Shown: piece after piece, positions 1-50,541 of the stretch
How positions within the stretch are numbered: the first letter of the stretch is position 1
How the letters are laid out: every line of letters begins with the position of its first letter
IMG/VR virus record: IMGVR_UViG_2627854066_000007
Reading direction: 5' to 3' (one strand)
DNA length: 51,816 nucleotides
Source: a virus
Taxonomy: Duplodnaviria; Heunggongvirae; Uroviricota; Caudoviricetes
Made by a program: the position numbers and the translations under genes
The notes under the pieces: model-generated
Databases searched by the model: none
Seen by the model: the letters and a program-made list of their open reading frames with translations, nothing else
What the model was told of the DNA's origin: nothing

Positions 1-1020
1 ATGAAAAGCATTTTAATTGAAAAACCGAATCAACTGGCAATTATCGAACGCGAAATACCCACCCCGTCAGCGGGTGAAGTACGAGTAAAAGTGAAACTTG
101 CCGGAATTTGTGGTTCAGATAGCCATATTTATCGTGGGCATAATCCTTTTGCGAAATATCCGCGCGTCATTGGTCATGAATTCTTTGGCGTCATTGATGC
201 AGTGGGTGAAGGCGTGGAAAGCGCCAGAGTCGGTGAACGCGTTGCTGTCGATCCGGTGGTCAGCTGTGGGCATTGCTATCCGTGCTCTATAGGTAAGCCG
301 AACGTTTGTACGACACTGGCTGTATTAGGTGTGCACGCTGACGGTGGTTTCAGTGAATATGCCGTGGTTCCGGCAAAAAATGCGTGGAAAATTCCTGAAG
401 CAGTGGCCGATCAATATGCGGTGATGATCGAACCTTTTACCATTGCGGCTAACGTTACCGGTCATGGTCAACCGACTGAAAATGATACCGTTCTGGTTTA
501 CGGTGCCGGTCCAATCGGCCTGACGATCGTTCAGGTATTAAAAGGCGTCTATAACGTTAAAAATGTGATTGTTGCCGATCGCATTGATGAACGACTGGAA
601 AAAGCGAAAGAGAGCGGGGCAGACTGGGCGATTAATAACAGCCAGACACCGCTTGGCGAGAGTTTCGCTGAAAAAGGCATCAAGCCGACATTAATTATCG
701 ATGCGGCTTGTCATCCTTCTATCCTGAAAGAGGCTGTAACGCTGGCTTCTCCAGCGGCACGTATTGTATTGATGGGCTTCTCCAGTGAACCGTCTGAAGT
801 GATTCAGCAAGGAATTACCGGAAAAGAACTCTCTATTTTCTCTTCACGCTTAAATGCAAATAAATTTCCGGTCGTTATCGACTGGTTAAGTAAAGGGTTA
901 ATTAAACCAGAAAAATTAATTACCCATACGTTTGATTTCCAGCATGTTGCTGATGCCATTAGTTTATTTGAACAGGATCAAAAACATTGCTGCAAAGTCT
1001 TACTCACTTTTTCTGAATAA
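1..1020 (+). CDS. rspB: Zn-dependent alcohol/sugar dehydrogenase (MDR family), RspB-like
   Basis: 339-aa ORF with the GHEFxG catalytic-zinc motif, a Cys-rich structural-zinc loop (CGHCYPCSIGKPNVC) and a Rossmann GAGPIGL motif; lies next to the int end of the prophage as rspB does beside Qin in K-12. Confidence 0.8.
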   Translation: MKSILIEKPNQLAIIEREIPTPSAGEVRVKVKLAGICGSDSHIYRGHNPFAKYPRVIGHEFFGVIDAVGEGVESARVGERVAVDPVVSCGHCYPCSIGKPNVCTTLAVLGVHADGGFSEYAVVPAKNAWKIPEAVADQYAVMIEPFTIAANVTGHGQPTENDTVLVYGAGPIGLTIVQVLKGVYNVKNVIVADRIDERLEKAKESGADWAINNSQTPLGESFAEKGIKPTLIIDAACHPSILKEAVTLASPAARIVLMGFSSEPSEVIQQGITGKELSIFSSRLNANKFPVVIDWLSKGLIKPEKLITHTFDFQHVADAISLFEQDQKHCCKVLLTFSE

Positions 1021-1077: not shown

Positions 1078-1089
1078 ATGACAATAGAA
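1078..1089 (+). pseudogene. ydfJ: ydfJ start codon plus codons 2-4 (MTIE), cut off by IS66-family insertion
   Basis: ATG ACA ATA GAA immediately precedes the IS left end; joining it to 3532 onward after removing one copy of the 8-bp duplication restores MTIEKHERSTKDLVKAAVSGWLGTALEF. Confidence 0.6.
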
Positions 1090-1126
1090 GTAAGCGTACA
1101 GCGAGGGCCGTATTGACGGGGATGTG

Positions 1127-2665
1127 TTATTCAGCTGGCAGTGCTATGCGCCACGGAAGCAGTTCGCTGACCCGGTTGACCGGCCAGTCTGCTATGACGC
1201 CAAGCACATGGCGAAGGTAGCTTTCTGGATCCACGTCATTCAGTTTGCACGTCCCTATCAGGCTGTACAGTAGCGCTCCCCGCTCACCACCATGGCCAGA
1301 GCCGAAGAACAGGAAGTTTTTACGACCCAGACTTACCGCCCGCAGGGCATTTTCAGCGATGTTGTTGTCGATTTCCACCCAGCCATCGTTCGCATAGTAC
1401 GTCAGTGCCGGCCACTGGTTAAGTGCGTACGCGAACGCCTTCGCCAACTCTGAGTGTCGCGACAGGGTCTTCATCTTTTCACGCAACCAGCTTTCCAGGG
1501 ATTTCAACAGCGGTTTCGTTTTTCGCTGACGTTCAGCAAGCCGCTGCTCTGCCGGCATTCCCCTTATATCCGCCTCTATGGCGTACAACTGACCGATCTG
1601 CTCCAGGGCTTCTTCCGTCAGTGCTGACGGGATGCGGACGTGCACATCGTGGATCTTTCGGCGGGCATGAGCCCAGCAGGCAGCTTCCGTTATCCCACCA
1701 TTGCGATACAGCTCGTTGAACCCGGCGTACGCATCCGCTTGCAGCACACCGCTGAAGCAAGCAAGATGAGTCTGCGGATGGATGCCTTTTCTGTCCGGGC
1801 TGTAAGCGAACCACACTGCAGGTGCCAACGCTGACCCGGCATTGCGGTCATCACGAACATACGCCCACAACCGCCCGGTCTTCGTCTTCTTATTACCCGG
1901 CATCAGTACCTGGACCGGGGTATCATCGGCATGGAGTTTGCCGTCAGTCATGACATAGCCATGAAGCGCCTCTTCCAGCGGAGACAGCAGCCGGCAGCAT
2001 GCATCCACCCAGCCCGACAGCAGTGAACGGCTCAGCTCCACACCTTGCCGGCCGTATATTTCTGACTGGCGATACAGCGGGGTGTGCTCTGCATACTTCG
2101 AGGTCAGCACGCGGGCCAGCAGCCCCGGTCCGGCGATACCCCGCTCGATGGGCCGCGAAGGTGCAGGTGCCTGCACGATGGCATCGCACTGAGTACAGGC
2201 ATGTTTTTCCCGTACCGTCCGGATAACCCGGAAGGCGCTACGCATCAACTCCAGCTGTTCGGCGGTATCCTCGCCCAGATAGCTCAGTGAACCGCCGCAG
2301 TTCGGGCAGCACGGCGCCGCAGGCAACAGTCGCTTTTCGTCACGGGGTAGTGATTCAGGGAACGGCTTACGGATGCGGGTCTGACGCAACGGACGCTGTA
2401 CTGCCGGGTCATACACCCTACCAGTCAGCGTATCGCTCTCTTTCTGAAGCTGGTTCAGATCGGCTTCCATTTGTGCGATACGGCGGGAGACTTTTTCGGA
2501 ACGACTGCCGAAGTTCATCCGGCGGAGTTTATCCAGCTGCGCCTGCAGATGGTCTATTTCGCGCTCCCGGTTGCTCAGCTTTTCCTGCAGGGCGTGGATC
2601 AGCGCTTCCTGTTCGGCCAGGCGCTGTTTCAGCAGGAAGATGTCGTCAGAAGAGATGTCGTTCAT
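1127..2665 (-). CDS. tnpC: IS66-family transposase TnpC
   Basis: 512-aa ORF with N-terminal leucine-zipper-like coiled coil, CxxC zinc motifs and DDE-type core; a paralog is at 37170-38708. Confidence 0.9.
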
Positions 2666-2714
2666 AAGCCCGTATTTTACCGGGCTTATTCTGTGACAAC
2701 CAGGATAAAGAGAT

Positions 2715-3062
2715 TTACAGCATGGTCAGGGAGGTCAGCAGCCGCTTAGGCTGTCGCCAGTCGATACCTTCCAGCAGCATCGCCAGCTGCGCCTGTGTAA
2801 GGAACACTTTGCCATCACGGGCTGACGGCCAGGCGAAGCGCCCACGCTCCAGCCGTTTGGTCAGGAGGCACAGTCCGTCACCGGTGGACCACAGCAGTTT
2901 AACCTGACTGCCGCTGCGGCCCCGGAAAATGAAAACATGGCCGGACATGGGATCGTCTTTCAGCGCCGTCTGTACTTTCGCAGCCAGGCCGTTGAAGCCA
3001 TTTCTCATATCGGTGATACCGGCAACCAGCCAAATTTTGGTCCCGGAAGGTAAAGGGATCAT
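2715..3062 (-). CDS. tnpB: IS66-family accessory protein TnpB (Orf2)
   Basis: 115-aa ORF directly upstream of tnpC, overlapping tnpA stop by 4 nt; near-identical paralog at 38757-39104. Confidence 0.85.
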
Positions 3063-3460
3063 CGCTTCAGTTCCTGTATCAGCAGAGTCAGGAGCTTTTC
3101 GCTGACATTGCCATTGAAGCGGAGCGTCCCGTGCCGGAACGTTACCTCACAGCTGATACTGAGGGTTTCCGGGTCCTCTGCGAGCGATTCTGGCTGTTCG
3201 GCAGCTGCATCGAGAGTCACAGGAAGTAGCTGGGGGCTCTCTGAAGAAGGTAATAGCAGCTTTCCCTCGCGCCATTGTTGTCGCCATTTGAACAACAGAT
3301 TGGCGTTAATGCCATTTTCAAGAGCAAGTTTTGAGATGGATATCCCGGGTTCACAGGAGGCAGCAACGAGCTGCTGTTTAAATTCGGGAGGATAATTAGG
3401 GCAGCCTTTTCGCCTGCCGGGAGTCACATTTTTCTGCATATCTGACACTTTGGTTCCCAC
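3059..3460 (-). CDS. tnpA: IS66-family accessory protein TnpA (Orf1, HTH)
   Basis: 133-aa ORF, first gene of the IS66 three-gene operon; paralog at 39101-39505. Confidence 0.8.
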   Translation of the reverse strand: MGTKVSDMQKNVTPGRRKGCPNYPPEFKQQLVAASCEPGISISKLALENGINANLLFKWRQQWREGKLLLPSSESPQLLPVTLDAAAEQPESLAEDPETLSISCEVTFRHGTLRFNGNVSEKLLTLLIQELKR

Positions 3461-3531
3461 TACTTATTTGGTGGACACCACTTTGTCTAATTCATCAGAT
3501 TCTGACCAGACGGTTCAGGCTGTACGCTTAC

Positions 3532-3620
3532 CAATAGAAAAACACGAAAGAAGCACTAAGGATTTGGTGAAAGCAGCAGTATCGGGATGGCTGGGCACTG
3601 CGCTTGAATTTATGGATTTC
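3532..3620 (+). pseudogene. ydfJ: ydfJ 5' fragment (codons ~2-30) between IS66 copy 1 and attL
   Basis: Reading frame encodes PIEKHERSTKDLVKAAVSGWLGTALEF, which continues as MDFQLYSLGAALVFHEIFFPE at 50533 on the far side of the prophage. Confidence 0.65.
3605..3620. other. attL core (prophage left junction within ydfJ)
   Basis: TGAATTTATGGATTTC here versus TGAATTATGGATTTC at 50527-50541; the two copies bracket the prophage and both lie in the ydfJ reading frame. Confidence 0.5.
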
Positions 3621-3657
3621 AAGAGTCATACGTGTCAACTATTTGATAAATATTAAA

Positions 3658-4953
3658 TTAATTTTTCATTGCTTCGTTATGGGGCATGGTTGGGGCAAAC
3701 TCGCTTAACTGTGTATTTAACAAAGCTACCTGTGCATTATTGTTTTCAGACATCCATTTTCCGTATACCTGAAATACCATTTGCGCATCTGCATGGCCCA
3801 TCTGGTTTGCTATAAATGCCGGGTTAGCACCAGCTGTCAGCGACCAGCAGGCATAAGTATGTCTCGACTGATATGATTTTCGATGGCGGAGTCCGGCACG
3901 TTTTATCGCTGCGTCCCACATCTGCCTTATTGAGTCAACGGTAAAATGGTCACCATAATTTTTTACTCTCGCTGACACTTCAGGTTGAAAAACAAAGGTG
4001 CATTTTTGTTTTTCTGTTCTGCCATACTCTCTGAGGTGAACATCAATGATATGCTCTTTGCTCAGTCTCGTTAATGTCATCTGACTCCGGAGAGCGTCGA
4101 TTGCTGGCTTAATAAGATGAATGACCCGATTGGTTCCCGCCTGTGTTTTTGGTACCGTGAAACGGTCTTTTGCTAAATTTCTCCTGATCATCATTGTTCC
4201 ATTTTTCAGATCTATGTCCTCCCATCCAAGTGCACACAGCTCACCAGGGCGAACGCCAGTATAAACAGAAACACACCATAAATTTTTTGCTTGCTGATTT
4301 CTGCACGCATCGATAAGACGGATAAATTCCTCCCGCGAAAGAGGATCCGGAATGGTTCTTGATTCCTTTAATGGCGAGATCCCCTTAAACGGATTATCTG
4401 GCAGGTAACCGTTATCAACACCAAACTGGAACACGGCGTTAAGATTTGTCATGTAATTATTTACAGTTACAGCCGATCTCCCTGGTTGTGTAACAATATA
4501 GTTACTTTTGGGGATCTGGTATCCAGTCAGTAGCTCTTTACGAACCTCCAGTAATTTTTCTTTATTAATCGATGAGGCAAGATTTTTTTCACCGATTATG
4601 CTCAGGATATTTTTGATGACGGCACGGTATGTGTTGAGTGATGTTTTGGCGACTTCAGTTTCTTTCAGTGCCAGAAATTTTTCAGCCAGTTCTTTTATGG
4701 TTAAATCTTGTCGGGCCTCACCAAATTTTTCCAGATTGCGTGAGGAGGGAAACTGTTTTGCATAGTCGAAAACACCAGTTTTTATTGCGTAACAAACAGA
4801 GGAGCGTAGTTCACCTGCAACGCGCCTGTTTTTTGCTGTGTCAGGAACCCCCAGATTTTCCCTGACTCTTACGCCTTTATAAACAAACCAGATACGTAAT
4901 TTCCCTCCATGGTTTTCCACGCCTGTCGGATATTTCATTTCAACTTCTCTCAT
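3658..4953 (-). CDS. int: Phage integrase (tyrosine recombinase)
   Basis: 431-aa ORF adjacent to attL; C-terminal catalytic region with RxxR...HxxRH...Y-type motifs (RSQMTLTR, HTYACW, QMGHADAQMVFQVYGKW); true start may be the internal Met at residue 6. Confidence 0.9.
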   Translation of the reverse strand: MREVEMKYPTGVENHGGKLRIWFVYKGVRVRENLGVPDTAKNRRVAGELRSSVCYAIKTGVFDYAKQFPSSRNLEKFGEARQDLTIKELAEKFLALKETEVAKTSLNTYRAVIKNILSIIGEKNLASSINKEKLLEVRKELLTGYQIPKSNYIVTQPGRSAVTVNNYMTNLNAVFQFGVDNGYLPDNPFKGISPLKESRTIPDPLSREEFIRLIDACRNQQAKNLWCVSVYTGVRPGELCALGWEDIDLKNGTMMIRRNLAKDRFTVPKTQAGTNRVIHLIKPAIDALRSQMTLTRLSKEHIIDVHLREYGRTEKQKCTFVFQPEVSARVKNYGDHFTVDSIRQMWDAAIKRAGLRHRKSYQSRHTYACWSLTAGANPAFIANQMGHADAQMVFQVYGKWMSENNNAQVALLNTQLSEFAPTMPHNEAMKN

Positions 4954-4972
4954 TAGTTAGTGTGGCTTTTAG

Positions 4973-5224
4973 TCAAGTAAGATGACGTCTTGGTCTCGCT
5001 GATGCCTGGCGCTCAATCCAGCGATCAATTTCTTCCAGGTTGTAAAAGCATGGACTGTTATCCCATGGCATACTGTCATGAGCGACATGCTTATATTCCC
5101 TTCCTTCCATAAACGATTTTTCCCGGGCCTTTTTTAACGTACCTTTTTTTATTCCTTTCAGCGCAATTAACTGCTCTTCGGATACCCATTTGCCGGGAGA
5201 GACAATCATGATTACTTCGCTCAT
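4973..5224 (-). CDS. xis: Excisionase-like small protein
   Basis: 83-aa basic ORF immediately upstream of int on the same strand; assignment is by position and size. Confidence 0.55.
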   Translation of the reverse strand: MSEVIMIVSPGKWVSEEQLIALKGIKKGTLKKAREKSFMEGREYKHVAHDSMPWDNSPCFYNLEEIDRWIERQASARPRRHLT

Positions 5225-5296
5225 CGATTTCTTTATCTCTTACATCAGACGAGCGCCGGTTGCAGAATACCAGTCACAACCGGCGACAGTTGAACA

Positions 5297-7768
5297 TTAA
5301 GAATCAGCCTGACTCGGGATCAGTTTTTGCCAGATAACTGAAACGTATTTTGCCTGGTAACGGGCGTCATCAAGTGCATTATGGCGCTCACCTTCGAATG
5401 GAATAGCCGTTCTGGCATCGAAGTCTATGGCTTTCCCCAGCTCAACGATTGTGCGTACATCGCGATCGTTGTAGTAACGCCACGGGCAGGGGATCCCCTG
5501 CCGTTCGTATGAACGGCGCAAAATCGTGTTGTCGAAGTTGGCTCCATTTCCCCAAACCTGAACAAAAAATTCACTGGAGTTTTCGTCGATAAATTCCCGC
5601 AATTGTAACAGTGCATCATCTAACGGGATTTCATCGGTCATAATGGCAGATTGCGCTTCGCGTGATTGCTTAAGCCACCATTTAATGGTGTCCCGATCAA
5701 TGACTCCGCCAGCAGTTTCCAGATCGATAGTCTTACTAAATTCCGGTCCCATATCTCCGGTTTGCGGATCGAAAAATATTGCACCTATTGAGATGATCGG
5801 GGCATCAGGATTTTTTCCCATGGTTTCAAGGTCGATCATTAGATGGTCACACGTCCTGCTGGTGGATGTGATTTCGTGATGACCGTTCACCTTAATTGAG
5901 TGATCTGCCGTCTCGCCAGTTTCATTATCGCTATTGTGATGCTGATTGCCGCCAGTGTTCTCCTTGTGTGGATGTTCAGCGCCTTCCATTTCCTCCGGAT
6001 CATCTTCCTGAACTTCAACCTGATACTCTTCATCGAATGTTTCTTGGTATGTTGCGTCGCCCATCACCGCGCCACAATCAGGGCAGTTGCCGCCGCCGGT
6101 CTGACCGCAGGCGGTGCAGACTTTTTCCACTTCCTGTTGCGCCACTGGTTCAGGCTGTTTCGTTTCTGGCTCGTTTTGTAACGCATTTGTGCTGTTTTGT
6201 TCCGCTTTTTGGTAGTTCCGTTCCGATTCATGCTGGTTCTGGTTCACAGAATCGCGGGTCTGGATCCCCTTAACCCATTTCGGATCATTCGGGTCACTAA
6301 TCCCTTCAACAAATTCACCACGTGATGCAGCAAGCAACTTATCGGCGTCAGGCTGGCTGATATTGGCTGCCTGCATAATTTTGTTTACTTCGTCAGCGGT
6401 AACTTTTATCGGCTCTGGTTGTTCTGAATCTTCAGCGGTATCTACATTTTGCGGTAAGCCCGTGTATGTGCCATTTTTTCGGGCAAAATATTCTTCTTTT
6501 GTGATTTCAGTGGCGCCAGCAGCCAGTGCCTTATCCAGACCAGAAAGTTTGTTTGCGCGACCGTATTTTTCTCCGTCCTTATCTGCGAAGAGGAAATAGA
6601 ACGGCCCCTCACGCTCTACAGATGGTTCAGCTTCCGGCGCGGTTTCATTTTTTGGGATATCAGATACCTCAGTTTCCACTGCATCAGTTTGTGTTTCTGA
6701 TGACTGGAGAACATCAACAGTGCCCAGGTCTGTTTCTTCATTCTCAAACACGCCCTTTGTCGTCAGGTATTCGCAGATATATTTGTTCAGTGCTATGGGA
6801 TCTTTGTGAATGTCGATCGGACGCTCACGGACAAGGCCAAAAATAGTCTGGCGGTCGTAGCGAAGGGCATCAGGCTGTTTGCGCATTGATGCCGAGATAC
6901 GCTTCCAGTCTTCGCGGTCGTTGTCGATAACTTCTTTTTTTGCCCAGCGATGGATGCTGCCGTCAATGTTTCCGGCATCCACATCACCAGGCCAGAGAGC
7001 GTAGGCCAGTTCGTCATCCAGTGTTTTCCATGTCTGCTTGTATTCGCGATGAATGGCAGCAATGACCGGGCTGATTTTTCCTGTTGAATTTTCAGTGTAC
7101 TGTTGATTGGCTCTGGCGCGGGCGAGATCAACAACAGACGTGTATTTTCCGGTTTCCTTGCGTTCACCTTCGCGACGTTTTTTCCAGATGCGCATCTCTG
7201 CCTGAATTTCGGGCCATTTAGCACCAGGAATACATTTATGCTTAACCCACCCAATGGCGTGCAACTTAAGCTCCGGATACATGGCGTTAACTTCTGGCAT
7301 TTTCATCAACGCTTCAACGATATGTCCGTCGAATGTTGCCATGTCTTCCTGCAACAATTCCTGTGCGCTAATAACCATATCAACGGTGATGTTTTCACAT
7401 GTGTCGAACTTAACCATGACAGCGTTCTGTACTTCAGGGGCCAGCTTGTCAAAAGTGACGTTCATCGGATCGGATTCAGTCTCAACCGGGACAAAAGAAG
7501 CAGACTCCTCATCCCAGCGGTTTTCCTGCATATATTCAGCATCCCATGAATCGAGGGCAGGGCGGGGTATGCCAGGTTTATCCTCGCAGACAATAAATTT
7601 ATAAGCGCAGTCCTGAGCAGCCGGATAATGTTCCAGGAACTGCCAGTGAAATTTTGCTCGAGCACGGCGTTCGTCGCCAGCTTCAATGGCTGTGGCTACA
7701 GCCACAGCGCCTTCTTCCCTTGTTGCCAGTTCGTCAGGAATAGCGGCGCAAATAAAGACTTTACTCAT
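5297..7768 (-). CDS. Phage exonuclease with C-terminal DEDDh-type 3'-5' exonuclease domain
   Basis: 823-aa ORF; C-terminal ~200 aa carry DLET, NGANFD and HNALDDA motifs consistent with the DnaQ-like DEDDh fold; a long acidic low-complexity linker precedes the domain. Confidence 0.75.
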   Translation of the reverse strand: MSKVFICAAIPDELATREEGAVAVATAIEAGDERRARAKFHWQFLEHYPAAQDCAYKFIVCEDKPGIPRPALDSWDAEYMQENRWDEESASFVPVETESDPMNVTFDKLAPEVQNAVMVKFDTCENITVDMVISAQELLQEDMATFDGHIVEALMKMPEVNAMYPELKLHAIGWVKHKCIPGAKWPEIQAEMRIWKKRREGERKETGKYTSVVDLARARANQQYTENSTGKISPVIAAIHREYKQTWKTLDDELAYALWPGDVDAGNIDGSIHRWAKKEVIDNDREDWKRISASMRKQPDALRYDRQTIFGLVRERPIDIHKDPIALNKYICEYLTTKGVFENEETDLGTVDVLQSSETQTDAVETEVSDIPKNETAPEAEPSVEREGPFYFLFADKDGEKYGRANKLSGLDKALAAGATEITKEEYFARKNGTYTGLPQNVDTAEDSEQPEPIKVTADEVNKIMQAANISQPDADKLLAASRGEFVEGISDPNDPKWVKGIQTRDSVNQNQHESERNYQKAEQNSTNALQNEPETKQPEPVAQQEVEKVCTACGQTGGGNCPDCGAVMGDATYQETFDEEYQVEVQEDDPEEMEGAEHPHKENTGGNQHHNSDNETGETADHSIKVNGHHEITSTSRTCDHLMIDLETMGKNPDAPIISIGAIFFDPQTGDMGPEFSKTIDLETAGGVIDRDTIKWWLKQSREAQSAIMTDEIPLDDALLQLREFIDENSSEFFVQVWGNGANFDNTILRRSYERQGIPCPWRYYNDRDVRTIVELGKAIDFDARTAIPFEGERHNALDDARYQAKYVSVIWQKLIPSQADS

Positions 7769-7861
7769 TTTGTTTTAACCTCATGACAGATTTAAGGATG
7801 AACAAATCCCTGCCATTGCTGGCATATAAGAATGAAACCGGATATTTATTACGGAACTGTT

Positions 7862-8053
7862 TTAAAGACCTGCCGGGATTTCGATATTATCCTGGTGAAT
7901 AACTTTATCGACCGGGTAACAGTTACCGGGAATTTTCTGTTCGGTTGCTGCTGTCATACACTCCTGCATTGTCCTGTGAACACTGACTGCAATATCAACT
8001 GGCTCTCCGGAAACAAGAAAAACTGTCAGAACAAGCGCAAATGCTGAATTCAT
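7862..8053 (-). CDS. ydfD: YdfD-like small membrane/lysis protein
   Basis: 63-aa ORF from an internal Met (MNSAFALVLTVFLVSGEPV...) with an N-terminal hydrophobic segment; overlaps dicB stop. Confidence 0.55.
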   Translation of the reverse strand: MNSAFALVLTVFLVSGEPVDIAVSVHRTMQECMTAATEQKIPGNCYPVDKVIHQDNIEIPAGL

Positions 8054-8238
8054 TGTGCACATCCTTTTGGCATCAGACGTAAACGAGCCAGCATTGAAAC
8101 AATGCATATTTTATTTAATAGCTCCCGTTCTTGTTTTCTCTTGTTAATGGCATCTTCAGTAAATACAGGGTTACTGATAGTGACACCAATTTCAAAACAA
8201 CCTTCAGACGTATTAACGTTTGGTAATAACGTTTTCAT
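8050..8238 (-). CDS. dicB: Cell division inhibitor DicB
   Basis: 62-aa ORF MKTLLPNVNTSEGCFEIGVTISNPVFTEDAINKRKQERELLNKICIVSMLARLRLMPKGCAQ, matching DicB as I recall it, ~175 nt downstream of dicF. Confidence 0.7.
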   Translation of the reverse strand: MKTLLPNVNTSEGCFEIGVTISNPVFTEDAINKRKQERELLNKICIVSMLARLRLMPKGCAQ

Positions 8239-8411
8239 TATCGCGTCCTCAACAATGAATTTTGTGATGCAATGCCTGGTGCCTCCAGGTGACGTTAACC
8301 AGTTAACAATTAACGCCGGATACAGAGAATCCACCCATAACACTGTTTTTGGTTTTAACTGTTCCGCGTGCGCTTAGCCGCATTCACCGCATCACAAAAT
8401 TCACTTTAAAA

Positions 8412-8466
8412 ACGGCGGCAGAGCAGTCACGGAGTAAAACTGATACCGCCAAACGTCACCAGAAAA
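8412..8466 (-). ncRNA. dicF: DicF small regulatory RNA (ftsZ-targeting)
   Basis: Reverse complement reads TTTTCTGGTGACGTTTGGCGGTATCAGTTTTACTCCGTGACTGCTCTGCCGCCG followed by a T-run, matching the DicF sequence as I recall it and ending in its terminator hairpin. Confidence 0.75.
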
Positions 8467-8740
8467 TTGATAACAGAGGGCGTTGCAGCGGGGTTGTCAC
8501 TTAAGCGTATGGTCAACCTGACAACTCGGTGTCCTCAACGGGGAAGGAATAACCCTGCCATACTTACCGCCGCGCCATTTCGCGGGTTGCCACAACCGGA
8601 AGCGCACGGTCGAATTAAATTTAACGACACCGTACAGTGAGACGAACTTCGCCGTGCGCTTTCGTGTTGTGTGCCTGCTTTTAACCACGTCAGGCGAGGT
8701 GGTATCCTTCTTATTCCGAATAACCAAGAAGGAAATCTAT

Positions 8741-10828: not shown

Positions 10829-11774
10829 ACGCCCACTGGTTATAAACACGCAGCTGGCAATGAAAATCGGCTTAAACGAAGCCATTGTTTTGCAACAACT
10901 GCACTACTGGTTGAGAGATACCAACTCCGGTATGGAATGTGATGGTGTTCGCTGGATTTATAACACAACGGAACAATGGCTGGAACAGTTCCCATTCTGG
11001 TCAGAGTCAACGTTAAAGCGCGCGTTTGCAAGTCTGAAAACGCTGGGGCTTTTGCGTTGTGAAAAGCTCAATAAATCAAAGCGCGATATGACCAATTTCT
11101 ACACGATCAACTATGGGAGCGAGCTTTTAGATGGTGGCAAATTGAACGAATCCATCGGTTCAAAATGCGCCGCTCCATCAGGTCAAAATGACACGATGGA
11201 AGAGGTCAAAATGAAACGCTCCATTGGTTCAAAACGACCCAATGTCATCGGGTCAAAATGGCCTGATGATCTTACAGAGAATACAACAGAGATTACTACA
11301 GAGAATAAAAACACTTTTCGTCCGGAAGCTTCGCAACCGGACCCGCAGACGACTGAACAGGATTTTTTAACCCGGAACCCCGACGCGGTTGTGTTTAGTG
11401 TGAAAAAACGCCAGTGGGGTAGCAGGGAGGATCTGGCGTGTGCGCAGTGGATTTGGGGGCGGATCGTGAACCTTTACGAACAGGCTGCCAGCGACGATGG
11501 AGAGATCATGCGACCAAAAGAGCCTAACTGGACAGCCTGGGCCAATGACGTGCGCACAATGCGGATGCTGGATGGCAGAAGCCACAGACAAATTTGCGAA
11601 ATGTTTGGTCGGGTACAGCGGGATCCATTCTGGGTAAAAAACATCATGAGCCCGTCAAAACTCCGCGAAAAATGGGACGAACTGGTCATCCGCCTGGGAC
11701 GTTCACCTGTACAGCGTTGTGTGAATCATATTTCTGAACCGGATACAGAAATTCCGCCTGGTTTCAGGGGATAA
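10809..11774 (+). CDS. Phage replication initiator (lambda O-like) containing origin iterons
   Basis: 321-aa ORF from MSLLFAERPLV (ATG overlaps upstream gene); internal tandem repeats of GGTTCAAAATG-type sequence followed by an AT-rich stretch, the arrangement seen for ori-lambda inside gene O. Confidence 0.7.
   Translation: MSLLFAERPLVINTQLAMKIGLNEAIVLQQLHYWLRDTNSGMECDGVRWIYNTTEQWLEQFPFWSESTLKRAFASLKTLGLLRCEKLNKSKRDMTNFYTINYGSELLDGGKLNESIGSKCAAPSGQNDTMEEVKMKRSIGSKRPNVIGSKWPDDLTENTTEITTENKNTFRPEASQPDPQTTEQDFLTRNPDAVVFSVKKRQWGSREDLACAQWIWGRIVNLYEQAASDDGEIMRPKEPNWTAWANDVRTMRMLDGRSHRQICEMFGRVQRDPFWVKNIMSPSKLREKWDELVIRLGRSPVQRCVNHISEPDTEIPPGFRG
11150..11265. repeat. Iteron-like direct repeats (putative phage replication origin)
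   Basis: Five copies of GGTTCAAAATG / GGTCAAAATGA / GGTTCAAAACG / GGGTCAAAATGG spaced at ~20-25 bp, encoding repeated IGSK peptide units, followed by AT-rich sequence at 11275-11330. Confidence 0.6.
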
Positions 11775-11814
11775 GTGTTGATTTCAGGTCATGAGATAAT
11801 TTTAAGGGGGACTT

Positions 11815-12216
11815 GTGGCAAAAGTTTTTACACAAGAAGAGCGGGAAAAAATTAAAGGGCAGGTTGTTGAACTCGTACGCCGGAGTGGGCGTGAGACGTT
11901 ACGGCAACTGGAAGTCAAGACAGGTGCGACAAGATATCTGATGAGCGTTCTCGCAAGAGAGCTGGTTGCCAGCGGCGATGTATACAACTCTGGTTACGGG
12001 TTATTCCCGTCTGAACAGGCGCGTAAGGACTGGCAAAATGCCCGTAAAAAGCTCTCAAGGGCAAAGCTGAAGAAACCATCTGCGGTTGATCCGGACCTTA
12101 TCTGGTCATTACCTGACGGAGAAATACGTCGCTACGACAGGCGTCAGAACATAATCTGCCGCGAGTGCCGGAAGAGTGAAGTTATGCAGCGCATACTGGC
12201 ATTTTATCAGGGATAA
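11815..12216 (+). CDS. Hypothetical phage protein (133 aa, GTG start)
   Basis: ORF downstream of the replication gene, basic, with a CRECRK motif; no family recognised. Confidence 0.5.
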   Translation: MAKVFTQEEREKIKGQVVELVRRSGRETLRQLEVKTGATRYLMSVLARELVASGDVYNSGYGLFPSEQARKDWQNARKKLSRAKLKKPSAVDPDLIWSLPDGEIRRYDRRQNIICRECRKSEVMQRILAFYQG

Positions 12217-12749
12217 TGTTAGATATTTTAGACGTTACTAGATTAAAAAGCATTAGTTCAGGAGTGAATTGACATTCTCATTTTTCATGGCACAGGGTAG
12301 ATCTGGCGTGGTTGTCCGCTTTGTGCCAACAGCGGACGTTACTAACGAAACTGTGAGTTAAAAACGGGAGCTGGTCACCTCCATCCCGCGAAATGGAATT
12401 CAAAAATGCCCTCATGTACGGTACTTCTAGTCTGATGTGAGCATTTTCGTGGATTTTTTCGAGCCACTCCAACGAATGATTACATTCAGTTTCGGGCACT
12501 AAAACGTCATAAATCCGCAAGTTGAGGAGTAGCGATCAGCCAATTGGTTAAAAAACAGCTTTAATTCCCTTTTTCAAGCAGGCTCCTTGTCGCACGTCTG
12601 GTGCATCCAATTCATTTCAGTTACCCTGATGCCATACTGGCACGGACTAGCTCTCTTAATTGGCGCTGGTTTGTTAACCTTGTCCGCTGTCGGGTCTTTG
12701 TAAGTTGTAATTCCTAAACTAGCATAATTTTATTATAAGGCCTCTTACT

Positions 12750-13775
12750 ATGCACATTTTATCTGTTTCAAAAAAGGAAGTTGGAAGAGCTGGGGATAGA
12801 TTAGTTTCTCAGTTTGGTACAGGTGAAAAATATAAAGAGGAAGATGTACAAATTCTTCATGAGTGGAGGATGTTGCATTTATATCCTTTAAGTAAAATAC
12901 AATTTTATATGGAAAGAGAGGCTATTTCCTTAAACAAAAATGCGTTACTATCCTCTAGAATTAAGAGGATGCCTTCCATTGTTACTAAGCTTTCTAGATT
13001 TCCTGATATGAAGTTAAATAAGATGCAGGATCTTGGTGGGTGCCGGGCTATTTTAAATAATCTGGATCAAGTGTATGATTTAGTTAATAAAATAAAATCA
13101 TCTAAATTCTCACATGAACTAGTTAGAATGGATGATTACATGATAGACGTGAAAGATTCTGGTTATAGAAGCTTTCATATGGTCTATTCATTCCAAAATA
13201 AAAAATTTCCATCTTTAAATGGGTTGCGCATTGAAATGCAAATAAGAACAGCTATTCAACATAGCTGGGCTACAGCAGTTGAAATGGTTGGTTTGTTTCG
13301 AAAGGAATCATTGAAATCTGGTTTTGGTGATGCAAGATGGCTTAGGTTTTTTGAATTGGTATCAGAGCTTTTTTATAAACTTGAGTATGAAAAAGAACCA
13401 TCTGGGAGTTATATAAAAATATCAGAAGAATTAAGTTATTTATCCGTCGAGTTGAATGTTTTCGATATATTAGCTGCTTACAATGCCGTAGTTAGCCATA
13501 TTGAGGGTAGCAAAAAATATGATAAAGGACTTTGCATAATTGTTGTTGATACCATAAAGCGGAATATAAATATAAAGAGCTTCGAAAATCACAATCATGC
13601 GAAGGCGGCAGAAGCTTATGTCGAGTCTGAAAAATACTGCGCGGAAAATAAAGGCTGTGAAGTGGCTATGGTTTCTGTTAGTTCAATTAGTGAATTAAAA
13701 AATGCATATCCTGCTTACTTTTTAGATACGAAAACTTTTTTAAATTATCTCAGTAGGTATGTTTTTATAAAATAA
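12750..13775 (+). CDS. RelA/SpoT-like nucleotidyltransferase (small alarmone synthetase-like; candidate toxSAS/CapRel-type)
   Basis: 341-aa ORF carrying RSH synthetase motifs in order: R70-x-K72-x3-S76-x3-K80, D94-LGGCR99, G138-YRSFH143, E162-MQIRTAIQHSWA174; gene is strongly AT-rich versus flanks; ~120-aa C-terminal extension beyond the catalytic core. Confidence 0.8.
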   Translation: MHILSVSKKEVGRAGDRLVSQFGTGEKYKEEDVQILHEWRMLHLYPLSKIQFYMEREAISLNKNALLSSRIKRMPSIVTKLSRFPDMKLNKMQDLGGCRAILNNLDQVYDLVNKIKSSKFSHELVRMDDYMIDVKDSGYRSFHMVYSFQNKKFPSLNGLRIEMQIRTAIQHSWATAVEMVGLFRKESLKSGFGDARWLRFFELVSELFYKLEYEKEPSGSYIKISEELSYLSVELNVFDILAAYNAVVSHIEGSKKYDKGLCIIVVDTIKRNINIKSFENHNHAKAAEAYVESEKYCAENKGCEVAMVSVSSISELKNAYPAYFLDTKTFLNYLSRYVFIK

Positions 13776-14208
13776 AAAATGTTATCTGGAGTGGTCTGAA
13801 TTCTACTAACTTAGTTTTTTCAGACCGCTTCTGACCACAATGGCCTGTGAGGTTCTGCTGCTAGTCAACATAAAATAACAAAGCCGGCAGGTGGTGGTTG
13901 TTGTAAAGTTATTCAATGACATTCATGGAGGCTTAAGCGAATTATTTGTCCCTGGTCGGTATGGTGGCAACAGCTTGTTGCGAGAATTTGGCTAATTTGG
14001 ACTGACTTCCGCTCCTTGCTCAAAGCGGACTAGAAGGTTAGCTTGTGTCGGACTTTGCGTATTAAAAGAAGTGCTGGTGGTGACTAGTGGTTGAGCCCCA
14101 TTTCCACAGAAAAAATCAGAGAAACTATACCCAATAGTTGTATTGAATCACTGACGAGACAGCCTCATATTCATCAGGACTGGTGTACGTCCAATACAGG
14201 AGGTTGTG

Positions 14209-14298
14209 GTGCTGGTTCTCAAATGTGCGCTGGCTATTACGGCTGTAATGGCGATTTATTGTCTTGCTATTGTTCTTATGGATCGCCTTTCTGACTGA
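14209..14298 (+). CDS. Candidate 29-aa hydrophobic peptide (type I toxin-like)
   Basis: AGGAGG at 14198-14203, 5 nt before GTG; product MLVLKCALAITAVMAIYCLAIVLMDRLSD is a single predicted transmembrane helix with a charged tail. Confidence 0.3.
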   Translation: MLVLKCALAITAVMAIYCLAIVLMDRLSD

Positions 14299-14509
14299 TT
14301 TCATATTGGCGAGGTAAAGGTAGTTAAGTAGAATGGCTGCGGGTGCTTGAGGCTATCTGCCTCGGGCATGAACACCAAAGGCAGATAGAGAAAAGCCCCA
14401 GTTAACATTACGCGTCCTGCAAGACGCTTAACATTAATCTGAGGCCAATTTCATGCTAGACACATGTAGGTTAGCCTCTTACGTGCCGGAAGGCAAGGAG
14501 AAGCAGGCT

Positions 14510-37012: not shown

Positions 37013-37132
37013 ATGACAGAGACAGAATCAGCGATTCTGGCGCACGCCCGGCGATGTGCGCCAGCGGAGTCGTGCGGCTTCGTGGTGAGAACGCCGGAAG
37101 GGGAAAGATATTTTCCCTGCGTGAATATCTCC
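37013..37132 (+). pseudogene. Tail assembly protein K, N-terminal 40 codons (interrupted by IS66-family element)
   Basis: MTETESAILAHARRCAPAESCGFVVRTPEGERYFPCVNIS ends at the IS boundary; resumes in frame at 39595 after the 8-bp duplication. Confidence 0.75.
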
Positions 37133-37169
37133 GTAAGCGTGCAGCAAGAACCGTATTGACGGGGATGTG

Positions 37170-38708
37170 TTATTCAGTCGGCAGTGCTACGCGCCAGGGG
37201 AGCAGTTCGCCGACCCGGTTTATCGGCCAGTCGGCTATGACGTCAAGGACATAGCGGAGGTAGCTTTCTGGCTCCACTCCGTTCAGTTTGCACGTCCCGA
37301 TCAGGCTGTACAGCAGCGCTCCCCGCTCTCCTCCATGATCCGAACCGAAGAACAGGTAGTTTTTGCGGCCCAGACTGACCATCCGCAACGCATTTTCAGC
37401 GATGTTATTGTCCGCCTCAGCCCAGCCATCATCTGCATAGTACGTCAGCGCCGGCCACTGGTTCAGGGCGTATGCGAACGCTTTCGCCAGTTCTGAGTGT
37501 CGCGACAGGGTTTTCATCTTTTCACGCAGCCAGCTTTCCAGGGATTTCAGCAGCGGTTTCGTTTTCAACTGACGTTCGGCAAGGCGCTGCTCCGCCGTCA
37601 TTCCCCTTATCTCTGCCTCGATGGCGTACAGTTCGCCGATCCGTTTCAGCGCTTCCTCCGTCAGGGCTGACGGGGTGCGAACGTGCACATCGTGGATTTT
37701 ACGGCGGGCGTGAGCCCAACAGGCGGCTTCCGTTATCCGGCCATCCCGGTACAGCTCGTTGAACCCGGCGTATGCATCCGCCTGCAGTACACCACTGAAC
37801 CCCGCAAGATGGGTCTGCGGATGGATGCCTTTTCTGTCCGGGCTGTAAGCGAACCACACCGCCGGCGCCAGCGTTGACCCGGCGTTACGGTCGTCACGAA
37901 CGTAGGTCCATAACCGCCCGGTCTTCGTTTTCTTATTGCCTGGCAACAGCACCGGGACAGGCGTGTCATCAGCATGGAGCTTACCGTCAGTCAGCACATA
38001 GTCCTGAAGCGCTTCTTCCAGCGGTGACAGTAGCCGGCAGCATGCATCCACCCAGCCCGACAGCAGTGAACGACTCAGCTCCACGCCCTGGCGGCCGTAC
38101 ATTTCAGACTGGCGGTACAGCGGGGTGTGCTCTGCATACTTTGAGATCAGCACGCGGGCCAGCAGCCCCGGTCCTGCGATACCCCGCTCGATGGGCCGTG
38201 AAGGCGCGGGGGCCTGCACGATGGCATCGCACTGAGTACAGGCATGCTTTTCACGTACAGTCCGGATAACCCGGAAGGCGCTGCGCATCAGCTCCAGCTG
38301 TTCGGCGGCATCCTCACCCAGATAGCTCAGCGAGCCTCCACATTCCGGGCAGCATGACGCTGCCGGCAGCAGCCGTTTTTCATCGCGGGGGAGTGATTCG
38401 GGGAACGGTTTGCGGGTGCGGGTTTGACGCAGCGGGCGCTGCACGGCCGGGTCGTCAACCCGACCGGTAAGGGTATCACTTTCTTTCTGAAGTGCCTTCA
38501 GGTCAGCTTCCATCTGTGCGATACGACGGGAGACTTTTTCCGAGCGGCTGCCGAAGTTCATCCGGCGCAGCTTATCCAGCTGTGCCTGCAGATGGTCTAT
38601 TTCGCGTTCACGCTCGTTCAGCTTTTCCTGCAGGGCACGGTTCAGCGCCTCCTGTTCGGCAAGGAGACGTTTCAGTGCATTGATATCGTCAGGAAGTGAG
38701 CTGCTCAT
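37170..38708 (-). CDS. tnpC: IS66-family transposase TnpC (copy 2)
   Basis: 512-aa ORF, paralog of 1127-2665 with scattered substitutions. Confidence 0.9.
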
Positions 38709-38756
38709 ACCGGGTATATTACCAGGCTCATTCAGCGTCGACCAGGATAAAGAGGC

Positions 38757-39104
38757 TTACAACATAGTCAGGGACGTAAGCAGTCTTTTAGGCTGCCGCC
38801 AGTCGATACCTTCCAGCAGCATCGCCAGCTGTGCCGGTGTGAGGAACACTTTGCCATCCCGGGCTGACGGCCAGGCGAAGCGGCCGCGCTCCAGCCGTTT
38901 GGTCAGCAGACACAGTCCATCGCCGGTAGACCAGAGGAGCTTTACCTGACTGCCATTACGCCCACGGAAGATAAAAACGTGACCTGACATCGGATCGTCT
39001 TTCAGCGTCGTCTGCACCTTTGCCGCCAGGCCGTTGAAGCCGTTTCTCATATCGGTGATGCCAGCGACCAGCCAGATCTTTGTCCCTGATGGTAATGGGA
39101 TCAA
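38757..39104 (-). CDS. tnpB: IS66-family TnpB (copy 2)
   Basis: 115-aa ORF, near-identical to 2715-3062. Confidence 0.85.
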   Translation of the reverse strand: MIPLPSGTKIWLVAGITDMRNGFNGLAAKVQTTLKDDPMSGHVFIFRGRNGSQVKLLWSTGDGLCLLTKRLERGRFAWPSARDGKVFLTPAQLAMLLEGIDWRQPKRLLTSLTML

Positions 39105-39505
39105 CGTTTGAGCTCCCGTATCAGCAGGTTCAGGATATTTTCACTGATGGCACCATTCAGACGGAGTGATCCGTGCCGGAACGTCACTTCACAGCTGATA
39201 TTGAGTGATTCAGGTGTCGCAGTAGCTACAGGTTGTGACCGGGGGGAGGTTGTAGGGACAACATCTTCGGCATCAAGTGTTATCGGGAGCAGCTCAGGCA
39301 CGTTGTTTTCTGTTGTTGAAGGAGGACGTAGTTTTCCTTCGCGCCAGTACTGGCGCCACTTGAACAGCAAATTATCGTTGATCCCATGCTCACGAGCGAG
39401 TTGCGCTACGGAGATCTCTGGTCGATGCGAGAGTTCAACCATTTTGATTTTGAACTCAACGGGATAATTAGGGCTTTTTTTACGCACTGCGGTTAATGAT
39501 TTCAT
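39101..39505 (-). CDS. tnpA: IS66-family TnpA (copy 2)
   Basis: 134-aa ORF; N-terminus differs from copy 1. Confidence 0.8.
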   Translation of the reverse strand: MKSLTAVRKKSPNYPVEFKIKMVELSHRPEISVAQLAREHGINDNLLFKWRQYWREGKLRPPSTTENNVPELLPITLDAEDVVPTTSPRSQPVATATPESLNISCEVTFRHGSLRLNGAISENILNLLIRELKR

Positions 39506-39594
39506 GGATAGCGTCCACCATATTTGGTGTCCACTATTCTCTCAGGAATTTCAGGATCTGCCAGACGGTGCTGAGACGACGCTTACATATCTCC

Positions 39595-40218
39595 GGTGAG
39601 CCGGAGGCGTATTTCCGGATGTCGCCGGAGGACTGGCTGCGGGCAGAGATGCAGGGTGAGATTGTGGCGCTGGTCCACAGCCACCCCGGTGGTCTGCCCT
39701 GGCTGAGTGAGGCCGACCGGCGGCTGCAGGTGCAGAGTGATTTGCCGTGGTGGCTGGTCTGCCGTGGGGAGATTCATAAATTCCGCTGTGTGCCGTATCT
39801 CACCGGGCGGCGCTTTGAGCACGGGGTGATGGACTGTTACACGCTGTTCCGGGATGCTTACCATCTGGCGGGGATTGAGATGCCGGATTTTCATCGCGAG
39901 GATGACTGGTGGCGTCACGGTCAGAATCTCTATCTGGATAATCTGGAGGCCACAGGGCTGTATCAGGTGCCGTTGTCAGCGGCGCAGCCGGGCGATGTGC
40001 TGCTGTGCTGTTTTGGTTCATCGGTGCCGAATCATGCCGCCATTTACTGCGGCGACGGTGAGCTGTTGCACCATATTCCTGAACAACTGAGCAAACGAGA
40101 GAGGTATACCGACAAATGGCAGCGACGCACACACTCCCTCTGGCGTCACCGGGCATGGCACGCATCTGCCTTTACGGGGATTTACAACGATTTGGCTGCC
40201 GCATCGACCTTCGTGTAA
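39595..40218 (+). pseudogene. Tail assembly protein K, C-terminal 207 codons (JAB/MPN + NlpC/P60-like)
   Basis: GEPEAYFRMSPEDWLRAEMQGEIVALVHSHPGG (JAMM-like HSHP motif) continuing to the stop; in frame with 37013-37132 once the IS and one duplication copy are removed. Confidence 0.75.
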
Positions 40219-50526: not shown

Positions 50527-50541
50527 TGAATTATGGATTTC
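50527..50541. other. attR core (prophage right junction within ydfJ)
   Basis: TGAATTATGGATTTC, the counterpart of 3605-3620. Confidence 0.5.

Follow-up and report, generated by a model that had tools for sequence, protein, structure and literature searches.

Organization of the interrupted ydfJ locus

The window, by which we mean the whole stretch of 51,816 nucleotides that was analyzed, begins with rspB and the first codons of ydfJ. These codons are severed from the remainder of the gene by an intact insertion sequence (IS) of the IS66 family, and the 3' part of ydfJ lies beyond a prophage that carries a second IS66-family element. The features are as follows.

1-1020, plus strand: rspB (Zn-dependent oxidoreductase), upstream neighbor (open reading frame [ORF]; RefSeq annotation of the near-identical locus of strain 64.1)
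1078-1089, plus strand: ydfJ start codon and codons 2 to 4 (ATG ACA ATA GAA), severed from the remainder of the gene
1082-1089: target-site duplication CAATAGAA, left copy
1090-3531, minus strand: ISEc8 (IS66 family), intact, 2,442 bp
1090-1102: terminal inverted repeat, tnpC end, GTAAGCGTACAGC, perfect over 13 bp
1127-2665, minus strand: tnpC, 512-amino-acid (aa) DDE transposase with leucine-zipper, zinc-finger, DDE_Tnp_IS66, and IS66 C-terminal domains
2715-3062, minus strand: tnpB, 115-aa IS66 accessory protein (Pfam PF05717, E = 1e-38; NCBIfam NF033819)
3059-3439, minus strand: tnpA, 126-aa helix-turn-helix accessory protein (Pfam PF01527; NCBIfam NF047595; RefSeq gene of 381 nt)
3519-3531: terminal inverted repeat, tnpA end, GCTGTACGCTTAC
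3532-3539: target-site duplication CAATAGAA, right copy
3540-3620, plus strand: ydfJ codons 5 to 31, up to and including the prophage attL core (translation and reconstruction)
3610-3620: attL core TTATGGATTTC, longest common substring of the two prophage ends
3658-4953, minus strand: prophage tyrosine integrase (int)
37125-37132 and 39587-39594: exact 8-bp duplication ATATCTCC of ISEc22
37133-39586, minus strand: ISEc22 (IS66 family) in tail gene K, 2,454 bp
50531-50541: attR core TTATGGATTTC, 11 bp
50533-51816, plus strand: 3' part of ydfJ beyond attR, 427 codons

The span of the element in ydfJ (1090 to 3531; 2,442 bp, minus strand, IS66 family) was confirmed base for base in the window. 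It is flanked by an exact 8-bp target-site duplication, CAATAGAA, that covers ydfJ codons 2 to 4, and its inverted repeats begin with GTAAGCG, agree at 13 of 13 positions, and continue as partial matches to approximately 26 bp. An exact 8-mer duplication has a chance of approximately 1.5e-5, and coincidence does not account for one that directly adjoins perfect terminal inverted repeats enclosing three IS66 genes. Thus, the first-pass annotation was correct in its coordinates for this element, in the exactness of the CAATAGAA repeats, and in placing the insertion directly after ATG ACA ATA GAA. The rspB gene runs toward ISEc8, and its 3' end faces the tnpC end of the element. Between positions 900 and 3800, a sigma-70 promoter scan yielded no promoter-like site, while a terminator scan yielded one terminator-like site; shuffled sequence gives more.

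Subtraction of ISEc8 with one duplication, and of the prophage with one 11-bp core, restores an uninterrupted ydfJ of 455 codons, a gene encoding an MHS-family MFS transporter. The gene was initially described as having been hit three times; the hits by the IS and by the prophage stand, while the third does not, leaving two in total. The Qin cryptic prophage of E. coli K-12 is integrated at the same site in ydfJ beside rspB, and its small genes dicB, ydfD, hokD, rem, cspB/I, essD, rrrQ, the pinQ-like recombinase gene, and tfaQ are also present here. Unlike Qin, the prophage in the window is full length, with approximately 46.9 kb between the att cores and with head and tail genes. It further differs from Qin in being disabled at least by the ISEc22 insertion in K (K::ISEc22) and in the additional ISEc8 next to attL, in the bacterial flank.

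ISEc8 genes and family membership

The tnpC, tnpB, and tnpA genes of ISEc8 are three intact minus-strand ORFs, with the tnpA stop codon overlapping the tnpB start codon by 4 bp (ATGA). Every Pfam and NCBIfam model for IS66 was matched far above its cutoff. TnpC matched Pfam PF03050 with an E value of 9.4e-107 and 283 of 284 profile positions covered, as well as PF13007, PF13005, and PF13817, and it scored 457 bits against the NCBIfam equivalog NF033517 (cutoff, 180). The IS66 TnpB is unrelated to the TnpB nuclease of IS605. The type of TnpC, the tnpA-tnpB-tnpC gene order, the GTAAGCG termini, and the 8-bp duplication all assign positions 1090 to 3531 to the IS66 family, for which a target duplication of 8 bp has been reported (PMC6778807). 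IS66 of Agrobacterium and IS679, the founding member of the family and a member studied functionally, are distant sequence relatives of this ISEc8 copy, and the 8-bp duplication reported for IS66 is shared with it. The three-ORF organization is likewise common to IS679 and ISEc8. Han et al. are said to have found in 2001 that IS679 has three ORFs and that all three are required for transposition. To our knowledge, no transposition chemistry (cut-and-paste or copy-out) is established for IS66 elements.

ISEc8 is abundant in E. coli O157:H7 and in APEC plasmids. The element at 1090 to 3531 is a 100% nucleotide match to many RefSeq copies annotated as ISEc8, for example in APEC O1 plasmid NC_009837, and differs from these copies in location alone; ISEc8 copies at 99% identity or more were present in 3,708 records. 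By this annotation it is a known element, and its insertion is a correct but ordinary observation. As its ORFs are intact, it is identical to widespread copies, and sister genomes have an empty site, this copy is probably still active.

Relationship between ISEc8 and ISEc22

The names of both elements were taken from RefSeq annotation together with element length. The copy in K is a 100% match to RefSeq copies annotated as ISEc22, and its 2,454 bp agree with the listed length of ISEc22 (2,454 bp; PMC5001619). The two elements share the same architecture and lie in direct orientation, both on the minus strand, with 36,043 bp from the start of ISEc8 to the start of ISEc22. ISEc22 exceeds ISEc8 by 12 bp, and their inverted repeats match over the first 8 bp before diverging. 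In a global alignment, the elements were 80.9% identical over all columns and 82.8% identical over ungapped columns, while BLAST aligned 2,092 bp at 85.1%. Among the encoded proteins, TnpB was 96.5%, TnpC 89.6%, and TnpA 52.8% identical.

These results bear out the initial description of a second IS66-family element in ydfJ, oriented like the K copy but not identical to it, and the N-terminal peptides quoted for both copies were also correct. The pairwise comparison of positions 1090 to 3531 with 37133 to 39586, proposed there as a check, gave approximately 81 to 83% identity, so the copies are not near-identical. Both could in principle descend from a single element that was recently duplicated or transposed inside the genome, as they agree in family, gene order, orientation, and the 512-aa length of TnpC. 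However, a nucleotide identity of only 81 to 83% (53% for TnpA), lengths of 2,442 versus 2,454 bp, inverted repeats that differ beyond the first 8 bp, and the 100% match of the two copies to two different named elements, both widely distributed, make this origin extremely improbable, and recent duplication of one IS66 copy is refuted by the pairwise alignment. The view of the first-pass annotation that these are distinct family members, or were acquired independently, was thus upheld. Because of the low nucleotide identity and the divergence of TnpA, we infer that ISEc8 and ISEc22 arrived separately as different named elements.

Order of events and distribution across genomes

A comparative survey covered 5,426 complete genomes, in about half of which the prophage site in ydfJ is occupied. 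The prophage adjoined a ydfJ 5' stub free of any IS (uninterrupted rspB-ydfJ'-attL-int) in 2,673 of the 5,426. K::ISEc22 was found at this site with identical junctions in six genomes, and the ISEc8 insertion in ydfJ (ydfJ::ISEc8) was found with identical junctions in five, all of them among these six. The five carriers (64.1, E7, APEC17, GPEC673, and GPEC1258) are all from poultry; codon 4 of ydfJ is a rare ISEc8 site. In the sixth genome, APEC 102026, this prophage with K::ISEc22 is present and the ydfJ site is empty. In APEC17, ISEc8 was later interrupted by ISCro1, with the duplication TTTTCGCC.

Taken together, we consider it highly probable (approximately 95%) that the prophage came first and that an intact ISEc8 inserted recently, with no consequence for ydfJ function. 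In this order of events, a lambdoid, Qin-like prophage would have integrated first, at ydfJ codons 29 to 31, turning ydfJ into a pseudogene, and would already have carried ISEc22 in tail gene K before ISEc8 came. ISEc8 would then have landed directly after ydfJ codon 4, with the DDE transposase TnpC presumably making staggered cuts 8 bp apart whose repair duplicated CAATAGAA. The insertion would be neutral for ydfJ because the prophage had already made it a pseudogene. Nothing in the window sequence contradicts an insertion of ISEc8 into a dead ydfJ. The idea that the IS was carried in by the prophage was rejected, given the 2,673 genomes with the prophage beside an IS-free ydfJ stub and the empty site in APEC 102026.

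The five genomes have the same junctions and the same prophage carrying K::ISEc22, which points to a single origin; most likely, ISEc8 entered ydfJ in one event within a single E. coli lineage associated with poultry. Alternatively, the ydfJ start and attL neighborhood could be a specific hotspot, with the five genomes representing repeated independent ISEc8 hits. Indeed, ISEc8 is present in the 3' end of rspB (window position 1003), in the same orientation, in three STEC genomes, and ISCro1 has interrupted the int gene of the prophage in E275a and its relatives and, in APEC17, this very ISEc8. However, these other neighborhood hits lie at different positions, and with IS66 copies numbering in the thousands in the 5,426 genomes, a few hits close by are to be expected. 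Furthermore, the ydfJ site reaches only the 70th percentile of the target-signature model of the clade (see below), and as the five carriers are alike in junctions, duplication, prophage, K::ISEc22, and poultry source, one event is the most economical explanation. We therefore regard repeated hits as very unlikely.

As two related IS elements bracket a segment of 33.6 kb, the elements and the intervening DNA might also be read as a composite transposon or as an assembly artifact caused by the repeats. A composite transposon would be expected to have a single shared outer duplication and none for each IS. However, ISEc8 and ISEc22 each have their own exact 8-bp duplication (CAATAGAA and ATATCTCC, respectively), and each was therefore inserted on its own; APEC 102026, moreover, has one IS without the other. 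An artifact is excluded because five genomes, each finished independently, have the same junctions with 100% identity. Both explanations are thus hardly credible, and separate insertion of the two elements, with ISEc8 arriving last, is retained.

Potential for recombination between the two elements

The first-pass annotation also predicted that homologous recombination between the copies would delete int through L in one step. The geometry is right: the copies are directly oriented, and the span lost would comprise the ydfJ stub, attL, the genes from int to L, and the 5' portion of K. Ready occurrence of such a deletion is not borne out, with a nucleotide divergence of 17 to 19% between the copies and no recombinant among the 5,426 complete genomes. 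The longest identical run of the two elements is 47 bp, with 4 runs of at least 30 bp and 12 of at least 23 bp. The minimum identical stretch needed for recombination (MEPS) in bacteria is up to 30 bp, and, with mismatch repair active, sequences that are approximately 20% divergent recombine at a rate at least 10^4-fold lower (PMC8918686, a review).

A deletion of approximately 36 kb at an appreciable rate, which would turn the prophage into a fixed remnant, could be supported by identical runs at or above the bacterial MEPS and by a precedent in an Agrobacterium plasmid, where identical IS66 copies recombined to give a large deletion with mismatched flanking 8-mers (PMC6778807). However, with a longest identical run of only 47 bp at this level of divergence, deletion is unlikely, and RecA recombination of ISEc8 with ISEc22, checked by mismatch repair, should be rare. 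Likewise, the rspB-side ISEc8 junction was paired with the int-side junction in all five carriers (interrupted by ISCro1 in APEC17), both K::ISEc22 junctions were kept in 6 of 6 genomes, and no hybrid of the two elements between CAATAGAA and ATATCTCC was found.

Target signature of the ISEc8/ISEc22 clade

The flanks of 187 insertions of the ISEc8/ISEc22 clade contained a weak, symmetric, and reproducible target signature. Complete elements with both flanks numbered six, and the symmetry was tested on tnpA-side ISEc22 flanks from IMG/VR; the ISEc8 tnpA-end 31-mer had no exact match in IMG/VR. The K site fits this signature well, and the ydfJ site fits it only moderately, at the 70th percentile of the model. 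One tentative and rather doubtful explanation is that the clade inserts nonrandomly, with a transposition complex that might read a 2-fold symmetric target of approximately 46 to 54 bp, consisting of W-T-A-W at the center of the duplication, flanked on each side by C two bases beyond its edge and by A/T 16 and 19 bp beyond it. The distance between these A/T positions and the central W bases corresponds to two turns of the helix. A literature search on IS66 mechanism and target preference returned nothing specific, and the searchable literature yielded no account of such a preference.

Gene K of lambdoid prophages has received at least three independent hits within 25 bp, all in the same orientation. 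If the signature were true, it would explain these recurrent hits, and an insertion peak would be predicted in gene K at the ATATCTCC and AAAGATAT positions. The signature concerns the IS66 clade and not the ydfJ copy in particular.

Implications

On the basis of RefSeq annotation, both elements can now be named, with ISEc8 in ydfJ and ISEc22 in K, and the expectation that this IS pair readily deletes the prophage is corrected. The ydfJ insertion appears to be a late event with no effect on an already dead gene; with it in place, loss of the prophage by excision or curing would not restore a working ydfJ. This, and a directly oriented pair of diverged (homeologous) IS66 copies that lie 36 kb from each other in the chromosome, would be the sole lasting consequences of the insertion. 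Because ydfJ::ISEc8 seems to distinguish a single lineage associated with poultry, it could be used as a marker of that lineage. The target signature, if real, would help to explain the landing sites of very abundant E. coli elements and, together with the recurrent hits in K, may help to explain how lambdoid prophages become fixed.

An ISEc8 insertion at the start of ydfJ

The transporter gene ydfJ starts at 1078 with ATG ACA ATA GAA, as established by sequence reading and scripted coordinate extraction. The ISEc8 copy occupies 2,442 bp: its left end, at 1090, reads GTAAGCGTACAGC..., and its complementary right end, ...GCTGTACGCTTAC, has its last base at 3531. The two ends are perfect matches for 13 bp, with partial matching out to ~26 bp, and the octamer CAATAGAA flanks it at 1082-1089 and again at 3532-3539. 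Three intact open reading frames are present on the minus strand:

3059-3439, minus strand: tnpA, with the ATG used by RefSeq; Pfam HTH_Tnp_1
2715-3062, minus strand: tnpB, its start overlapping the tnpA stop as ATGA; Pfam TnpB_IS66 (E=1e-38)
1127-2665, minus strand: tnpC, 512 aa, beginning after a 49-bp gap from tnpB

TnpC carries the full IS66 set of Pfam domains (LZ_Tnp_IS66, zf-IS66, DDE_Tnp_IS66 [E=9e-107], and DDE_Tnp_IS66_C), and all three proteins pass NCBIfam equivalog models. The element at 1090-3531 has every defining feature of the IS66 family that can be tested in sequence. The extracted coordinates agree exactly with the first-pass annotation, which had placed an IS66-family element with these boundaries and this duplication at codons 2 to 4 of ydfJ.

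The gene had also been described as interrupted three times; the count is two. As the split of ydfJ at codons 29 to 31 predates ISEc8, the insertion brings no further cost to the cell. Relative to attL, ISEc8 sits on the bacterial side, with 78 bp separating it from the core. In a lambda-type attL, the arm sites are on the phage side; by analogy, ISEc8 should not impair prophage excision, after which ydfJ would remain broken. A simple scan detected no promoter-like sites in or around ISEc8. The insertion site is not new, being already annotated in five public genomes. Overall, the ISEc8 insertion is accurately described but ordinary: a known IS in an already dead gene, beside a different known IS, ISEc22.

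Relationship between ISEc8 and ISEc22

The element at 1090-3531 matches RefSeq copies bearing the annotation ISEc8 at 100% identity, among them one on an APEC O1 plasmid (NC_009837); copies at least 99% identical to it were found in 3,708 records. The second copy lies in tail gene K (37133-39586; 2,454 bp; duplication ATATCTCC). It matches annotated ISEc22 copies at 100% identity and has the published ISEc22 length of 2,454 bp (PMC5001619). In a pairwise alignment, ISEc8 and ISEc22 were 80.9% identical when gapped columns are counted and 82.8% identical when they are left out; a BLAST alignment covered 2,092 bp at 85.1%. Protein identity was 89.6% for TnpC, 96.5% for TnpB, and 52.8% for TnpA. 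A recent duplication as the origin of the pair was rejected, as the copies align at only 80.9-82.8% and match different elements. By sequence, then, the two are distinct named elements within a single family, and each has a target duplication of its own. The earlier proposal of distinct family members is borne out by this comparison: the copies are not near-identical, and the CAATAGAA repeats are exact.

Divergence is far higher at the tnpA end (~48-72% identity per 100-bp window) than in the tnpB/tnpC part (80-93%). This unevenness suggests modular exchange of tnpA and its inverted-repeat end within the family.

The 240-aa C40 family peptidase annotated by RefSeq at 39496-40218 (plus strand) has a start codon that falls within ISEc22, at the tnpA end, and its reading frame runs out of the IS into the 3' part of K. 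It is almost certainly an annotation artifact of the interrupted K rather than a real fusion protein.

Potential for recombination between the two copies

ISEc8 and ISEc22 form a direct repeat, with 36,043 bp between their starts. A crossover between them would delete the ydfJ stub, attL, int through L, and the 5' piece of K; a single hybrid IS would remain, with CAATAGAA on one side and ATATCTCC on the other. Mismatched flanks of this kind were diagnostic of an IS66-mediated deletion in Agrobacterium, where the copies involved were identical (PMC6778807). The pair described here, however, is 17-19% divergent. The longest identical run shared by ISEc8 and ISEc22 is 47 bp, and only 4 runs reach 30 bp (12 reach 23 bp). 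The minimal efficient processing segment in bacteria is at most 30 bp, and ~20% divergence lowers recombination at least 10^4-fold unless mismatch repair is lost (PMC8918686). The int-side junction was retained in every genome with the rspB-side ISEc8 junction, and each genome with one K junction also retained the other. The predicted deletion of int through L is therefore sound in its geometry, but given the divergence and the retained junctions, an appreciable rate is very improbable; such deletion is possible and should be rare.

Prophage occupancy of ydfJ and order of insertions

The window spans the rspB start to the ydfJ stop and contains a Qin-like lambdoid prophage flanked on each side by the 11-bp core TTATGGATTTC (positions 3610 and 50531). 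When ISEc8 plus one copy of its duplication and the prophage plus one copy of the core were deleted in silico, a 455-codon ydfJ was restored. A query constructed to represent the empty site (rspB, ydfJ codons 1 to 31, attL, and int) matched end to end in 2,673 of 5,426 complete genomes, indicating that occupancy of ydfJ by the prophage is old and common. In the other genomes sampled, the query matched only up to the att core, and the annotated ydfJ was intact.

Exact K::ISEc22 junctions (100% identity) were found in six genomes. Five of these, all from poultry (64.1, E7, APEC17, GPEC673, and GPEC1258), also have the exact left junction of ydfJ::ISEc8; strain 64.1 is 99.97% identical to the window over 49.9 kb. 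Four of the five also keep the int-side junction whole; in APEC17, ISCro1 interrupts it. The remaining genome with K::ISEc22, APEC 102026 (from a chicken in Australia), shares the integrase, excisionase, and exonuclease proteins, and its rspB-int spacing of 187 bp shows that its ydfJ site is empty. The nested ISCro1 of APEC17 is a later event, with a duplication, TTTTCGCC, equivalent to window 3407-3414:

L002 (APEC17) 11626-14324, opposite orientation to ISEc8: ISCro1, a third IS66-family element, in the 5' part of ISEc8 tnpA

Read from the distribution of these junctions (2,673 empty-site matches, six K::ISEc22, five ydfJ::ISEc8, and the empty ydfJ site of APEC 102026), the order of events is prophage, K::ISEc22, ydfJ::ISEc8, and, in one strain, ISCro1.

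The prophage also encodes a 341-aa RelA/SpoT-domain protein (12750-13775, plus strand) with a full-length match to PDC-S33, a candidate defense family in PADLOC (E=5e-119), which may be a prophage-borne antiphage gene.

Other IS66-family insertions occur nearby. In three STEC genomes, an independent ISEc8 copy in the same orientation disrupts the final codons of rspB, 86 bp upstream of the ydfJ insertion; ISCro1 interrupts the prophage int gene in E275a and related human isolates (duplication CTCTGAGG):

L003 (2013C-4974) 6215-8656: ISEc8 in rspB, equivalent to window 1003
L004 (E275a) 5798-8493: ISCro1 in int, equivalent to window 4029-4036

In 2013C-4974, an IS3 fragment adjoins the rspB copy, with safA/ydeP beyond it; a large adjacent deletion has thus removed ydfJ and the whole prophage region. 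The rspB and int insertions are separate events at separate sites, and they do not mark the ydfJ start as a specific hotspot.

A weak target-site signature of the ISEc8/ISEc22 clade

The 5' part of the lambdoid tail gene K has received at least three independent ISEc22 insertions within ~25 bp, always in the same orientation:

Window 37085-37150: region of the K insertion, duplication ATATCTCC
L006 (2015C-3163) 4298-6751: K insertion, duplication CTCTGCAG
L007 (F8704-2) 4280-6733: K insertion, duplication AAAGATAT; equivalent junction match in E110019

The IS copies in 2015C-3163 and F8704-2 share 99.7-99.9% identity with the window copy, against only 78-91% in the flanks. Matches similar to the CTCTGCAG-type junction occur in several more STEC genomes, at least one annotated O103:H2, and diverged lambdoid prophages were also among the matches of the K junction query.

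Flanks at the tnpC end were collected via a 27-mer common to ISEc8 and ISEc22, yielding 58 distinct flanks from species-representative genomes and a further 69 from metagenomes. Numbering starts at the IS end and runs away from the element, so that the duplication occupies positions -1 to -8. A/T was present at -24 in 53/58 genome flanks (p=3e-9) and 58/69 metagenome flanks (p=4e-7). Both sets independently showed A/T at -27 and -3, along with T at -5, A at -4, W at -6, and enrichment of C at -10. The 43 tnpA-side ISEc22 flanks, mostly from IMG/VR, mirror the tnpC side (W at -27 in 35, at -24 in 31, and at -6 in 35; A at -4 in 27), which makes the preference two-fold symmetric. The center of the signature is W-T-A-W within the 8-bp duplication, with C two bases outside; the distal A/T positions are separated from the central ones by 21 bp, or two helical turns. 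Of 187 flanks, 83% had A/T at 16 bp and 79% at 19 bp beyond the duplication, compared with a background of ~55%.

A symmetric half-site matrix, built from the 187 flanks with the window's own sites excluded, was used to score the window. The K site (37093-37132) scored at the 98th percentile and was a local maximum, as was the AAAGATAT site, while the ydfJ site (1060-1089) reached only the 70th percentile. No description of a target preference of this kind for IS66 was found in the searchable literature, the coverage of which is incomplete. The target signature of the ISEc8/ISEc22 clade is reproducible, two-fold symmetric, and weak; genome, metagenome, and viral-contig sets each showed it independently (flank loci L009-L233). 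This family-level signature and the hotspot in K are the only results here with some potential.
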